From positions 7,626,001 to 7,690,000 of the forward strand of contig OZ024749.1 in the NCBI GenBank assembly GCA_964016885.1: a stretch of 64,000 nt of DNA. The letters run 5' to 3'. Of this stretch, positions 11,512-54,180 are shown piece after piece (position 1 is the first letter of the stretch; each line of letters starts with the position of its first letter). Origin of the DNA: Eledone cirrhosa. Taxonomy: Eukaryota. The translations under genes were made by a program, and so were the position numbers. The notes beneath the pieces were generated by a model. That model searched no databases. It was not told the origin of the DNA and worked only from the letters and a program-made list of their open reading frames with translations.

Positions 11512-11737
11512 ATTGTTGTGAATAATGATAGCTATGGTGCTTCCATAGGCGGTATGCCAAAATTAGCACTCGATATTCAGCAGAGTAGAGTGTAGATAGT
11601 ATAAAGAAAACGAAAAATCAGTGATGCATCTGGACTTAATTTATTGCGTGCTACAATTGTTTCGCCGGCATGTAGCTCGAGTCATGGTCCTTGTCTGGAT
11701 CTGGCTGATTCTACGGCTGCATGTTCTTTCAGACACG
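11512..11737 (-). mobile_element. Family B PLE-type end with long-stem-II HHR (11647-11737, degenerate)
   Basis: Minus strand: cgtgt-CTGAAAGA-acatgcagc..gctacatgccggc-GAA-ACAATTGT-A-gcacg then AATAAA; homologous to 53972-54180 and 55090-55436. Confidence 0.7.
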
Positions 11738-11939
11738 GGTATTTCGTTCGGAGCAAATTATATCACTGGGGTGTTATCATAAAAAAAACACCCTCAAAAA
11801 ACGCTCCTCCACTCTTGTCATGCTATTGGCTGTTTTTACTCCACGTCATCACAGGTTCTGGTCAGTATTTACTGCTACACGGGTCATCAGCCATCAGCCA
11901 ATCGGTACAGTATATGGAACGAATATATTAGGTTAACGC

Positions 11940-12258
11940 TTGAAATAGCAGGAAGAGGGTCTTAACAGTTCGGACGGTAGTCCTTCATCAGAAGAAAGAA
12001 TGAGAAATTAGATAGATTGAAGGGATGGGCGGGATGGAATTGGAAAAATGTATTCAGATAAAAATAACGACAGGTCCATTCTACATTTTCGTCTTTTTAC
12101 ATGGACTAACTTTTATTTTCTGTATCTCTCCACTGTAATCCTTTCTCACTATTTATACTCATGAAGAAGGTCGAAAGCCCGACACGTCGAACTTTCTTTC
12201 TCATTTCCATGTAAAGCGTGAAAGTAATAAGACGTTTTGTACTTTTGTTCTATCCCCT
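11940..12258. mobile_element. PLE-like end with two decayed minimal HHR-like motifs in opposite orientation
   Basis: Minus 11958-11995 CTGATGA-aggac-tacc-gtcc-GAActgtta; plus ~12158-12190 atgaagaa-ggtcgaaagccc-gacacgtc. Tail aagcgtgaa..taataa is also seen at 40520-40570 (minus). Confidence 0.45.
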
Positions 12259-12531
12259 TATATATATATATATATATTATATAAATATATATATATATAT
12301 ATTATATATATATTATATAAATATATATATATATATTATATATATATATATATATTATATATATATATATATATTATATATATATTATATATATATTATA
12401 TATATATTATATATTAGATAGATAGATAGATATATATAATATATATAATATATATATATAATATATATATATATATAATACATATAATATATATATATAT
12501 ATATAATATATATATATAATTATATATATAT

Positions 12532-12808
12532 AAACTTGTCGAGTGCTTTATATCAGTTATAAAATATTTACTTGTTGTAACCCAACAATTTTAAATAAAA
12601 CTTTTGCATATATAGATTATATATATATATATATAAATTATATATATATATATATATATATATATATATATATATATATATATATATATATATATATATA
12701 TATATATATATATATATAATTTATATATATATATATATATAATCTATATATGCAAAAGTTTTATTTAAAATTGTTGGGTTACAACAAGTAAATATTTTAT
12801 AACTGATA
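12532..12808. repeat. Inverted duplication of a family D tail centred on (TA)n
   Basis: 12550-12607 is the reverse complement of 12751-12808, and microsatellite interruptions are mirrored (tagatta/taatcta, taaatta/taattta). Confidence 0.85.
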
Positions 12809-13007
12809 TTATATATATTATATATTATATATATTATATATATATATTCTGCCTAGGCAGATCTCACCCAATGCAGCCTTGACAGAAGTATACTGCCCGA
12901 CTATGGCAGACAATGGATATACCCAGGACACTTTAGTGAAATACCAATATATGGAATATTACATTCATGTAACATTCTTTCCTTATTTTAATTTACATTC
13001 TTTTAAA

Positions 13008-13121
13008 GTTCCGATGAGCCGCTCTAATTATACCTAGGTTAATTATTTTCAACTGAACCAGATCAATAATGATCTATAAATATCCAGAAATATTATATGG
13101 AGTAGTGACACAATTGTAAAC
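13008..13121 (+). ncRNA. Degenerate long-stem-II HHR
   Basis: gtt-CCGATGA-gccgctcta...tggagtagt-GAC-ACAATTGT-A-aac; two core substitutions, probably inactive. Confidence 0.55.
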
Positions 13122-50691: not shown

Positions 50692-51283
50692 TGACAAAAT
50701 CTCATCTGTGATCTCAAACTTCCTGAAACACAATATGTCATTATGGAACACAAATCTCCAGTTGTCTCATTCCACTGGCGTACTGTACTCTAGGAATATA
50801 AACATCAACTGTGGTATATTCCAGGGTGACTCACTTTCACCCTTGCATTTCTGTATAGCTTTAATACCCCTTACATCTGAACTTAATAGAACAGGGTACA
50901 GTTATAGAATTGACAACAAAAAAATAAACCACCTATTTTATATGGATGATTTGAAGCTATATTGCAAAGATACTGACGAACTGCAAGGCTTTTTACGGAC
51001 ATTAAAAACGTTTAGCGATGACATCAGGATGGAGTTTGGCATTGGCAAGTGTGCAAAAGCCACTTTCAAGAAGGGGAAGCTTGGCAACTCAGACTCAGTT
51101 TATGAAACAATCATAAAGGATCTTGAGCAGGAACAAACCTATAAATACTTAGGGATTAATGAGGGCTCTGGCATACAGCATGCAAGTATGAAAGAGAGGA
51201 TAAGGAAAGAATGTTAGATGAGAGTACGTGCAGTTCTGAGATCAGAACTAAACGCTCGTAACAAGGGGCTAGCCATAAATTCC
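50692..51283 (+). mobile_element. R4/Dong RT fragment
   Basis: GIFQGDSLSPL, HLFYMDDLKLY, MEFG..KC, YKYLG; begins directly after (TAA)n. Confidence 0.9.
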
Positions 51284-51292
51284 ATATATAAT

Positions 51293-51417
51293 GAGTACCA
51301 GCCTGCCCGCCCAGCTAGTGGGATGGCGTTATCTTATGGCTAAAACAGCACGACGTCCTGTGACCAGCGGCGCCGATTGGCACCCGACAGACTGGTCGGT
51401 CAAGGCGATCAAGGTGA
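51293..51417. other. Unclassified 125-bp GC-rich island between TA tracts
   Basis: CpG-rich, with sharp boundaries at TA repeats; no recognisable ORF. Confidence 0.4.
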
Positions 51418-51958
51418 TATATATATAATATATAATATATAATATATATAGACACACATATAAATATTCTTTTGCGGCATCTGCCCACGCCATCCAATAA
51501 TGTGTCTCTTTATAAGATTAGGAAACATTTTAACAGAATATCTGGGTATTGGAAGAATTCATTAACCATTCCTCAAGATATTCAATGTTCAGTATTATAC
51601 TAGCTTTCTTCACTAGCCCGGCTTGGATTATATATAAAGCTTAAAAGAATTATATATAAAGCTTAAAAGCTTTTAAGCAAAGCCAATGTAAGATACACAG
51701 ACGAACATAATACATGTTATATAACTTTCGTATATAGTTACATGTACAGCCCTATGTCACTCACTTACAAACTCAGTCAACATATATGTAGAGAATTGAA
51801 TACGTTTTACGTTCACTGTATTATAATTTCAAATATAAACCCCTGAACATACACGTCAGACGAGTCATAACCTTAAGATGCGTCATTAAATATTGTATTG
51901 ATCATGTTTCATTCTATATACATATGTATATGTATATATATATATATTATATAATATA

Positions 51959-53920
51959 GTAGTACAGAAGTTCAGACCGTGTCCGTAAACAACTTATCAA
52001 CTTTTTCCGGGACTGGGGATTTAAAATCACACTACAAACGTCTCTAACCCGAGTATATTTCCTGGACGTTACCCTCAACCTAGAAAATGATATGTACTAC
52101 CCATACAGGAAACCAAACGACAACCTGCACTACATCCACCGCCGCTCTAACCATCCGAGAAACATCACCAATTATCTGGTTAAAAACATATTTCGTTTGT
52201 CAGCTAATGAGCAGATATTCAACGAACATGCGCCTCATTACAACCAGGCCCTCAAGTGGAGTGGCTTGAGGGAGGAAATATCCTTTTATCCAGTTTCCCT
52301 TAGCGGAACCAGCAAGCGACGCCGCCGCCCACGCCACGTAACGTGGTTCAATCCTCCCCCACAATGCTGAGGTGGCAACACCTATCGGGAAAATCTTCTT
52401 TAGGCTCCTCGAAAAACACTTTCCACCACAACAACGCTACCACAACATACTCAACAAAAACACTATCAAACTATCCTACAGCACCACACCTAACTTCGCA
52501 CAAAACATCGTCTCCTCAAACAACGAAAATCTTAACACGTATGGAAGAAACAACCTAGAAATTAGTGGAGAGCCGACCAGGATGTGTAACTGCCCTGATA
52601 GATCTACGTGCCCCCTCAATAACAGATGCCGAGAACGTAACGTGATCTACCAGTGCAACGTGAGGACGGACACCTCCAACAAGGCTTATATAGGATTAAC
52701 CGCTTGTGACTTTAAGACCCGGCTCTACCAACACCGACATACGTTCCGAAACCCGGTCCGGCGACATGCCACCACACTTTCGGGCCATATATGGGACCTC
52801 CAAGATAATAATATAACTTACCATCTTACTTGGAGCTTACTGTCCAGAGCTAACTCTTACACGGGAGGACGCCGTCCGTGTAACTTATGCTCGGAGGAAA
52901 CATTACAAATGATGTTTACGAAGGATCAACTCCTAAACAAAAAAGATGAACTGGTAACTTCATGCAAACACAGATTGCAGAAGACTTATCTCGCCCTCAA
53001 ACTCCCTAATGATCTGGATGGGTAGACAAGGGCTGAAACAAGGCCCCACTTGTCGAATAAGATAGGGAAAACCCCAATTTATATTTTCTTTTCCTCTATG
53101 TTTTCTTCTTCACTTTGTCTCCTCCTATCACTTCTTTCCACCACCGAACTTCTTCCTCGTTCGTTCCTTTTTTTTCCTTTCGCCTACCTCGAGGCAGCCC
53201 ATCGGGCCTCTTTAGCGTCAGTACCCCACCCCAGTACCTTACAGATAGCATTCGCCGATTACGCTATACTAACTAATCATAACAGCTGTGTTAGACCCCA
53301 GAGATGTGGTATTAATTTTTAATACCCAATTCTAAATTTTCAATAATTCTCACCTAGCAACTCATTCTATAGCATTGGCCAAAAAAGCAGCACCAACTAA
53401 ATATAGCAGCTGTGTTAGACTCCTTAGTTTTTGTTTTATTTCACTTCTCACTTTCCAATCTTACATTCTGATATATCTGTCTCTCCTTTTTTATTATATT
53501 CTTTTTTATTATATTTTTTCTATGTCCCCTAATTCTCATTTGATTTACCTTTTCTATAACTTCCCGCCTCCATTTTCTAAAGAAACCTTTTTTCGCCTAC
53601 CTCCCCTGGCCTACTTTCATACACATTCCTTAGAATTTGCCGTGTAGATTTCACCTTCAATGCTTGACCGGCTCTACCCACTCCCTTATTATTCTACAAG
53701 CAAGTTCAGCCACCCCCACCCCGCACCCATTGGCATGATAGACTTTTCTGTGTCTGCTACAAATGTTGACCAATCATCTTGACAACTACAATATTACCAT
53801 ATAAGGAAGTACCACTTGAAATGTTCGGCTATTTATTTACCGGACTAAAAAACTCTTACTTTAGTCCAGAAATAGCCGTCGAAACGGCTTGAGCTCTGCC
53901 GTCGGGGTCATACTTTCTCA
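51959..53920 (+). mobile_element. 5'-truncated Penelope-like element (RT C-terminus + CxC linker + GIY-YIG; possibly Hydra clade), frameshifted, ending in the family A HHR
   Basis: FLDVTL..YRKP..YIH..SNHP; WFNPP; CNCx5C; VIYQC..AYIGLT; CNLC..E..LLNKK.EL...CKH. Frameshift at ~52365; (TA)n at both ends. Clade assignment is from recalled motif pattern only. Confidence 0.9.
53811..53908 (+). ncRNA. Type I HHR with long stem II (family A parent; degenerate U3-A8-type core)
   Basis: accac-TTGAAAT-g..cggctattt..ggactaaa/tttagtcc..aaatagccgtc-GAA-ACGGC-ttgagctct-GCCGT-C-ggggt; GUC at 53901-53903. Confidence 0.7.
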
Positions 53921-53971
53921 TATATATATATATATATATATATATATATATATATATATATATATATATAA

Positions 53972-54180
53972 TATGGAAAACGAAGAATCAGTGACCCATC
54001 GGAATACAACTTATTATGCATTACAATTGTTTCTCCTGCGTACAGCTTGAGGTGCGATCTGTTTGTGGATCGAACCTGACTCTGGATTCGCAAGTTCCTC
54101 AGATACGTCTAGTGGTTTCGAAGCAAATTCTCTTTCTGCTGGACTCCGACCCTTCGGATTTTTATCATCTGCCTTCATCC
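53972..54180 (-). mobile_element. Family B end with long-stem-II HHR (54018-54106)
   Basis: gtat-CTGAGGA-acttgcg...cgcagga-GAA-ACAATTGT-A-atgc. Confidence 0.72.

Follow-up and report, generated by a model that had tools for sequence, protein, structure and literature searches.

Type I hammerhead ribozymes with long stem II in a genomic window of Eledone cirrhosa and their probable link to Penelope-like elements

This work describes hammerhead ribozymes in a stretch of 64,000 nucleotides (nt) of DNA from Eledone cirrhosa (assembly GCA_964016885.1, contig OZ024749.1, positions 7,626,001 to 7,690,000), referred to in the following as the window. These sequences are probably type I hammerheads located at the 3' ends (pseudo-long terminal repeats, pLTRs) of Penelope-like elements (PLEs) inserting into (TA)n, in which stem II was lengthened to 58-116 nt in several separate lineages. 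The parent elements belong most likely to the Hydra clade, and under the models discussed below the long arm would most likely represent a tolerated extension. Judged from sequence, the long-armed hammerheads of the window are a genuine variant, new in length and shape, of a type I hammerhead already known from PLEs. Their stem II exceeds the usual descriptions two to five times and is larger than what is called minimal; the extension is modest and peripheral, as core, topology and host element are already known. An initial annotation of the window had listed six hammerheads with long or branched stem II and a palindromic stem III; its observation was confirmed in part, and its interpretation as an expanded structural class, missed by standard models and possibly cleaving only as dimers, is likewise supported in part.

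Hammerhead motifs and chance expectation

The individual copies are named A to L. A strict type I descriptor, composed of CTGANGA, 8-200 nt, GAA, a perfect palindrome of 6-12 nt starting with A and ending with T, an H and a stem I of at least 4 bp, gave five matches in the window (stem II of 31, 34, 36, 62 and 116 nt) against a mean of 0.004 and a maximum of 1 in 500 block dinucleotide shuffles. When a test for closing of stem II was added, two matches were retained against 0 in 200 shuffles, and all sixteen decoy core words (16/16) gave 0. Word counts were 41 for CTGANGA (19.4 expected), 20 for CTGATGA (7.1 expected) and 7 for ACAATTGT (2.0 expected). A scan blind to the palindrome returned ten matches, seven of them with a fully self-complementary stem III, one with a partly self-complementary stem III (37616, minus strand) and two which were judged to be chance (5094 and 35114, both on the minus strand). 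A (TA)n tract is found at most 210 nt 3' of 13 of the 15 hammerhead sites, compared to 20% of random sites. The core is bordered by stems I and II in the proper register, and the ends lie in stem I; exceptions are the stem II of D and the family K, which has no stem I. The CUGANGA and GAAA boxes and the NUH cleavage site are intact in A, E, G, H and I, and at least one deviation is present in B, C, D, F and L.

The hammerhead geometry is real and far above chance. A mere juxtaposition of short words in AT-rich DNA is extremely improbable as an explanation, being refuted for A, E, H and I by shuffle, decoy and covariation controls; among the copies it is plausible for D only, and otherwise for the repeated occurrence of CCGATGA (P=0.2). 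Copy D (13008-13121, plus strand) is a doubtful hammerhead with two core changes, CCGATGA (U4C) at 13011 and GAC in place of GAA, and a stem I of 3 bp. Its 89 nt segment 13018-13106 has a z-score of -0.5 (z-scores of stem II folds compare the real sequence to shuffles), and its branched fold was equalled by 56 of 200 shuffles. A single-sequence search matched D to 50235-50089 (E 6e-5), which suggested a decayed short interspersed element (SINE); the profile built from eight SINE copies does not match D.

Each of the six stem II ranges cited in the initial annotation is bounded exactly by a core word of 7 nt on one side and a GAA word on the other. Only two of the six copies (17454, plus strand, and 54102, minus strand) have an intact core.

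Single copies with a long stem II

Copy A (17448-17594, plus strand) is a type I hammerhead with an intact core (17454) and a stem I of 6 bp, present as a single copy in the window. Its stem II (17461-17576) is a rod of 116 nt (z -7.9) which folds with -44.1 on the ribozyme strand versus -28.8 on the opposite strand, includes four G-U pairs and contains a 10-nt unit three times (17502, 17512 and 17522). The inverted repeat ends exactly at both core words and does not mirror them. The 8-nt palindrome is at 17580-17587, the cut is predicted after 17588, and (TA)n is found directly upstream and about 200 nt downstream. A 3' fragment at 9164-9212 (minus strand), composed of GAA-ACAATTGT and truncated within the 3' arm of stem II, resembles the 3' end of copy A; it beats 955 of 955 composition-matched windows against the 3' arm of A, in a score which includes the core.

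Copies B and C are also single. Copy B (18344-18457, plus strand) is a decayed hammerhead with a CTAAAGA core (G5A) at 18349 and four of five stem I pairs; its stem II of 85 nt (18356-18440) is three-way branched (z -5.9), the minimum free energy structure equals the centroid, and the palindrome is at 18444-18451. Copy C (48773-48885, minus strand) has a CCGATGA core (U4C, 48877-48871), an imperfect stem I, a stem II of 79 nt (48792-48870) with a basal helix of 9 bp and a weak z-score of -2.2, a palindrome at 48788-48781 and (TA)n 58 nt away. Like copy L, described next, B, C and D carry core changes and look decayed.

Copy L (53811-53909, plus strand) has TTGAAAT as 5' core (53816) and a two-tier stem II of 58 nt (53823-53880, z -5.1). 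In place of a palindromic 6-8-mer, its stem III consists of 5 bp and is closed by a loop that is itself palindromic. Its GUC site ends at 53903, and the (TA)n end of the element is 16 nt off. The activity of copy L appears uncertain rather than dead, since PLE hammerheads naturally include cases of U3 paired to A8 (Cervera and de la Pena 2014, PMC4209133) and A9U occurs in one functional ribozyme (PMC10085705).

The description of the six arms as unusually long holds, with 58-116 nt and folds better than shuffles in five of the six, but branching is convincing in only one (18356-18440). No convincing branching is seen in the stem II of A, C, D, E and L, and those of A, C, E and L are rods with internal loops. 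At position 10.1-11.1 the pair is G-C in A, C-G in E and U-A in B and C.

The E/F/G family

Copy E (54018-54106, minus strand) has an intact core (54102), a stem I of 4 bp, a three-tier stem II of 62 nt (54095-54034, z -3.9) and a palindrome at 54030-54023, all within an insertion of about 210 nt between two (TA)n tracts. Elements L (plus strand) and E (minus strand) end tail to tail in a shared (TA)n tract (53920-53974). The homologue F (11647-11737, minus strand, core 11732) has one extra A in the core, a stem I of 5 bp and a stem II of 61 nt with z -0.5. As its opposite strand folds far better (-25.9 versus -11.8), we read F as decayed after insertion. The homologous element G (55179-55436) carries its hammerhead on the plus strand (core 55292, stem II 55299-55359, palindrome ACATATGT). 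In front of it lies an inverted copy with 5' truncation, which starts within the 3' arm of stem II. The stem II of G has z +1.5 and is decayed.

E, F and G share a stem II of 61-62 nt at about 66% identity. On the structure of E, six of 28 pairs change on both sides, three in stem II, two in stem I and one in the palindrome centre. Six double-sided changes were reached by 6 of 500 shuffles, and slid controls gave 0-3. RNAalifold on the stem II of the three copies alone returned the same tiers, with 14 predicted pairs, two of them compensated. A covariance model of the family, run on the window and on six of seven related loci (L002 left out), gave no additional long member; its weaker matches were mostly shorter hammerheads.

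Instead of lengthening in separate lineages, the long arms could be copy-specific accidents, i.e. short-stem PLE hammerheads which gained foldback insertions or slippage duplications in loop 2 after insertion in an AT- and microsatellite-rich genome. This would fit the 10-nt unit repeated in A, the TATATA-rich sequence with which the arms of A begin, the frequency of small inverted-repeat elements in the window, and the fact that A, B, C and D are single, without detectable stem II homology in the five pairs tested. It does not account for the common length, identity and compensated changes of E, F and G, nor for the inverted repeat of A stopping at both core words, for the fragment 9164-9212 resembling the 3' arm of A, or for the derivatives of L, described below, which retain the 3' arm of its stem II. 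We consider accidents quite unlikely.

The proposal of an expanded structural class goes too far: long-arm homology was undetectable in the five pairs, lengths are continuous from 12 to 116 nt, and a case of 54 nt has been tabulated already. For B, C and D as one family there was little support, as stem II-only scores were matched by background windows (100/1208 for B-C, 353/1795 for B-D and 46/1795 for C-D); shuffles of the whole regions gave p of only 0.005-0.055. The sequences point to several lineages carrying long arms and do not support a single class.

Stem III palindromes and cleavage

The initial annotation described stem III as usually a self-complementary 6-8-mer and gave six words. 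All six are found at stem III positions, but three belong to hammerheads with shorter stems: ATGCGCAT goes with a stem II of 34 and 36 nt, ATATATAT with one of 31 nt and ACTAGT with one of 14 nt, none of them long.

In a nearest-neighbour model of six copies, closure of stem III in the monomer ranges from -0.3 to +5.4 kcal/mol. The double hammerhead lies 11-20 kcal/mol below two monomer folds in all six copies modelled, in a dimer model without concentration term and without tertiary contacts. Between E/F and G the palindrome centre changes on both sides, at positions which pair only between molecules. Dimer cleavage of the parent transcript is fairly likely. The parent element would be transcribed with two pLTRs, and two ribozyme copies would pair via their palindromic stem III, with stem I strands exchanged between them, and so form a double hammerhead which would cut after GUA, GUU or AUA; the long stem II would stack on stem III as a tolerated extension, dispensable to the core. 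Of the suggestion that the long forms cleave only as dimers, the energetic side is favoured, with the weak closure of the monomer stem III. Dimer cleavage has however been published before as the model for such ribozymes (Cervera and de la Pena 2014, PMC4209133; PMC6765202) and is not a trait of the long form as such.

Cleavage as a monomer, with two base pairs of the 8-nt palindrome formed above a tetraloop and the fold stabilised by stacking of the long stem II, would be consistent with the slightly favourable 2-bp closure in A and E (-0.2 and -0.3 kcal/mol), with the real 5-bp stem III of copy L and with fungal PLE hammerheads with a larger helix III, which are described to cleave as monomers (PMC4209133). 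We doubt this explanation: the change of the palindrome centre on both sides is relevant only to intermolecular pairing, seven of the eight credible matches of the palindrome-blind scan are fully self-complementary, and the double hammerhead is far lower in energy.

No intact tandem pair of the same family is present in the window, and the only same-family pair on the same strand within less than 5 kb is J1/J2, where J2 (56990, minus strand) is without the GAAA half. For the absence of such a pair the copies in the window are considered relics, truncated at the 5' end or inverted and mostly decayed, which have probably lost cleavage in cis.

The host element

The window contains a 5'-truncated Hydra-type PLE at 51963-53920 (plus strand), composed of the end of a reverse transcriptase (RT), a GIY-YIG endonuclease, a frameshift near 52357 and a 3' untranslated region ending in copy L and (TA)n. 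The open reading frame (ORF) 51963-53022 has a CxCX5C linker and CxxC and CxH motifs around conserved E and N, as Craig et al. 2021 define the Hydra clade. A profile of relatives covers 51966-52986 in order, RT first and then C-terminal GIY-YIG endonuclease. The RT end has 43% identity to P0054, and 7005 relatives were found at E<=0.001 in a representative library; Pfam gave no match for the endonuclease of this ORF. Long relatives bear RxRW and ADKT, the RWK/DKT region being truncated in the window. A TA-rich tract precedes 51963 and (TA)n starts from 53920, in line with the target of this type of element.

A location at the 3' end of a PLE was found for L and for the short hammerhead at 37616 (minus strand), which lies behind a GIY-YIG remnant. 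For A to G, placement at a PLE 3' end would follow from their (TA)n ends and inverted arms. As no ORF remnant adjoins any of these copies, we infer their assignment to the Hydra type from the style of the ribozyme only. G, H, I and K carry an inverted 5'-truncated arm, and inverted 5'-truncated copies are a described PLE trait (Craig et al. 2021, PMC8557442).

From the 3' end of the Hydra-type element seven small inverted repeats are derived, which lie in (TA)n (7532-7714, 13604-13750, 16953-17227, 26802-26998, 32553-32690, 40307-40473 and 40780-40969). In most of them a single arm is extended by a tail of about 75 nt (at 16953 both are), which exceeds the 30-40 nt given for tails of PLEs. Once two of the 14 alignments were dropped for low score, 11 of the 12 well-aligned arms begin in the stem II loop or its 3' arm (53852-53877) and the twelfth at 53886.

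This distribution of arm starts, as if the RT stalled and turned round, could indicate that selection acts on the long stem II in its own right, as a functional module serving either as a protein platform or as an RT pause site setting 5' truncation and inversion, with cleavage being secondary. The inverted arm of G and the fragment 9164-9212 likewise start in the 3' arm, and a PLE hammerhead is reported to be protein-assisted (PMC11167929). Opposed to this, a single event with later deletions around the palindrome centre may have given all seven derivatives, the turning point of families H, I and K is upstream of the ribozyme, and no motif is common to the long arms. We regard a selected module as unlikely. 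A wider form of the same idea is at best tentative: long, sometimes branched arms of 60-120 nt would be selected modules of a large unsurveyed set of active PLE hammerheads in some animal genomes, binding an element protein or pausing the RT to give foldback derivatives, and some of the 'hammerhead-less' families would carry them unseen by searches with short spacers.

Our preferred explanation, PLE-borne type I hammerheads with a stem II lengthened in several lineages, has a number of points to its disadvantage. L, the copy with the least canonical core, is the only one linked to an ORF. The copies A, B, C and D are single in the window. The E/F/G comparison consists of three sequences, with the structure taken from E, and related sequences can beat shuffles; the cells of the basal helix are only 67% paired, F and G alone fold no better than shuffles, and a 5-7-nt complementarity scan for base-paired contacts, pseudoknots likewise, gave no contact of stem II with the stem I flank common to the three copies. 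A joint alignment fold of the stem II regions of H and I gave no pairs. Furthermore, the Poseidon hammerhead is described to cleave only with protein, cleavage being dispensable for insertion in vitro (PMC11167929).

Related ORFs were analysed on seven contigs (L001-L007), which are probably host DNA in bacterial bins. Hammerheads are present in five of the seven, with a stem II of 12-31 nt and a stem III of 6-10 nt which is mostly self-complementary; a further match with a 44-nt stem II in L007 looks like chance. L001 ends inside its hammerhead and L002 is without 3' end. L003 has two near-identical hammerheads 2487 nt apart (2496 and 4983), in the layout of tandem pLTRs, with a two-tier stem II of 31 nt. 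Inverted hammerhead pairs occur in L004 (5218 and the opposite strand) and L007, as they do in the window.

Comparison to known hammerheads

The metazoan PLE hammerheads (PMC4209133) share with those of the window the type I topology, the CUGANGA and GAAA boxes, the extra nucleotide after A9, a palindromic stem III, dispersed 5'-truncated copies, opposite-strand pairs and the proposed dimer cleavage; the palindromic positions 15.2-16.2 and loop 3 are found here too. They differ in stem II, which is of about 24 nt or less in 56 rows and 58-116 nt here, in stem III, mostly of 4 nt there and of 8 nt here, and in the pair G10.1-C11.1, which is kept there and not in B, C and E. The background statement of the initial annotation that minimal PLE hammerheads are short in stem II is in agreement with the published animal sets. 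The Hydra-clade hammerheads (PMC8557442) are described with a near-palindromic stem III of 8-10 nt starting with AC and ending with GU, additional nucleotides flanking stem II on either side, (TA)n as target, a 3'-terminal position and inverted 5'-truncated copies, all of which resemble the window; U-A at 10.1-11.1 is common in the Hydra table of this work. In the loci L003-L005, too, such a stem III, the additional flanking nucleotides and (TA)n as target are regular. Their stem II, as given there, reaches about 26 nt, in contrast to 58-116 nt here.

Longer spacings are on record in other systems. PLE-X1_sMoe and PLE-X1_sTam of spikemosses (PMC8557442) have 54 and 49 nt between boxes by our own count and are flagged there as non-canonical; in distinction to the window they are from plants, lack an endonuclease, target ribosomal DNA, have no 8-nt stem III palindrome and are shorter than A, B and C. 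The satellite RNA sCYDV-RPV (+) has a long helix II made of 5/4/4-bp segments with internal loops (PMC1636495) and is reported to need a double hammerhead (PMC6466107), but it is a plant satellite RNA without genomic retroelement and its helix II is shorter than here. The PLE hammerhead variants of Lunse, Weinberg and Breaker 2017, as summarised in PMC6765202 and PMC6466107, likewise cleave as dimers via a palindromic stem III. Non-LTR (long terminal repeat) retrozymes (bioRxiv 10.64898/2026.07.22.740005) also are type I hammerheads in non-autonomous PLE derivatives, and are described in head-to-tail tandem arrays, whereas copies here are single or inverted; no tandem array of score >=80 covers a hammerhead in the window. 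A stem II of 58-116 nt or a branched one was not found published for animal PLE hammerheads, a search whose scope excluded figures, bioRxiv supplements and Lunse 2017. Among literature joining cephalopods, Penelope-like elements and hammerheads, only Craig 2021 was found.

Naiads are reported without canonical hammerheads (PMC8557442). A link to them was not sustained: two GAAA-palindrome words occur 0 times in the text of the supplement, where line breaks could hide some, and the 3' end of Naiad_Ovul differs by eye. By eye, GAAA comes first in that 3' end and CUGAUGA follows at a distance of about 22 nt, an order like that of a permuted hammerhead; the authors marked it as half core.

With respect to detection, the initial annotation expected that standard models would miss the long forms. 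Both Rfam and the published descriptors do so, but arm length is not the reason in the case of Rfam, because short Hydra-type copies are missed too, with no hammerhead at E<=1 in four of four related loci. Over the whole window no hammerhead was among the 150 listed of 401 Rfam matches at E<=10, and around A or E none was found even at E<=10. The descriptor of Cervera (PMC4209133) has a helix II of 3-7 bp, a loop of 3-10 nt and a stem III of 4 nt, and the core-only search of Craig et al. 2021 (PMC8557442) is given with 7-17 nt between boxes. With these spacer limits, both searches would miss arms of 58-116 nt. Published PLE hammerhead searches, capping box spacing at about 26 nt (Cervera) or 17 nt (Craig), overlook these hammerheads; their counts may therefore be underestimates, and the same goes for families reported to be without one. 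The natural arms of 60-116 nt with an intact core allow direct tests of whether PLE hammerheads need a dimer, a protein or a contact of stems I and II.

The CCGATGA core

A CCGAUGA core variant had been proposed to recur at 6478, 13011 and 48871 (minus strand). The word is present at all three positions, but it is not enriched, with five occurrences in the window against 3.1 expected. The three sites belong to unrelated elements: D is doubtful, C is single, and 6478 has a U in its sister arm and is without stem I. U4C as a family variant finds no support so far, the word being not enriched and family K having C and U mixed. The U4C change is a known active variant in viroids. PMC3088659 states that three viroid cores deviate, and no CCGA core is found among the rows of the Cervera supplement (PMC4209133).

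Shorter hammerheads and other features of the window

Element H (13961-14441) is an inverted repeat with intact hammerheads on both strands (14255, plus, and 14149, minus), a stem II of 34 and 36 nt and the palindrome ATGCGCAT. Family I comprises four copies with a stem II of 30-31 nt: an inverted repeat at 79-424 with hammerheads on both strands (176, minus, and 327, plus) which have a stem II of 30 nt and a self-complementary stem III with G-U in its centre, and hammerheads at 29855-29920 (minus strand, stem II 31 nt, palindrome ATATATAT) and 47386-47450 (minus strand, stem II 30 nt). Three of 20 pairs are compensated in this family, which 9 of 500 shuffles reach. Copy J (57400-57442, minus strand) has a stem II of 14 nt, C3U and the palindrome ACTAGT. 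Family K is an inverted repeat on both strands (6420-6528) with CCGATGA on one arm (6478, plus) and CTGATGA on the other (6470, minus); its stem II is short, and a partner for stem I is missing. Position 4 is C in one arm and U in the other, and in a third copy it is ambiguous at the inversion centre. At 6346-6528 and 54268-54425 the inversion centre of this family is at or just before the 5' core, hence stem I is missing. Further decayed short hammerhead-like motifs are at 7091-7345 and 11991 (minus strand), one of them within an inverted repeat.

A GIY-YIG remnant at 37837-38244 (minus strand), with a CxxxxCxxC finger and a Pfam E of 0.033, is followed by the short-stem hammerhead at 37616 (minus strand). 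We take this remnant to be Neptune-like. The 3' end of the same element has a second copy at 55815 (minus strand).

The window is animal DNA of 34% G+C, rich in microsatellites. The sole Rfam match at gathering score over the whole window is a eukaryotic-type 5S ribosomal RNA copy (50324-50442, minus strand, single, 105.7 bits), directly adjoined by a SINE-like repeat of about 200 nt. This repeat has many copies across the window and forms tandem arrays at 994-1783 (111-bp unit x7.1) and 62261-62734 (172-bp unit x2.8). Minisatellites are found at 35189-36293 (30 bp x36.8) and 61235-61873 (78 bp x8.2). Remnants of non-LTR retrotransposons with an RT of the long interspersed element type are at 22316-24109 (minus), 36367-36798 (minus), 50603-51214 (plus) and 41437-41853 (plus), with RVT_1 matches in two of the four and zf-RVT in one. 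An unclassified young repeat of about 450 bp has copies 94-99% identical at 20372-20786, 21556-22006, 54555-55005, 24708-24933 and 36953-37250. The stop-free stretch 4410-4730 (plus strand), to which Pfam gave no match, presumably resembles a piece of a mariner transposase. An ARAGORN call of a transfer RNA for tyrosine (48099-48192, plus strand) sits in an AT microsatellite array and is probably spurious.

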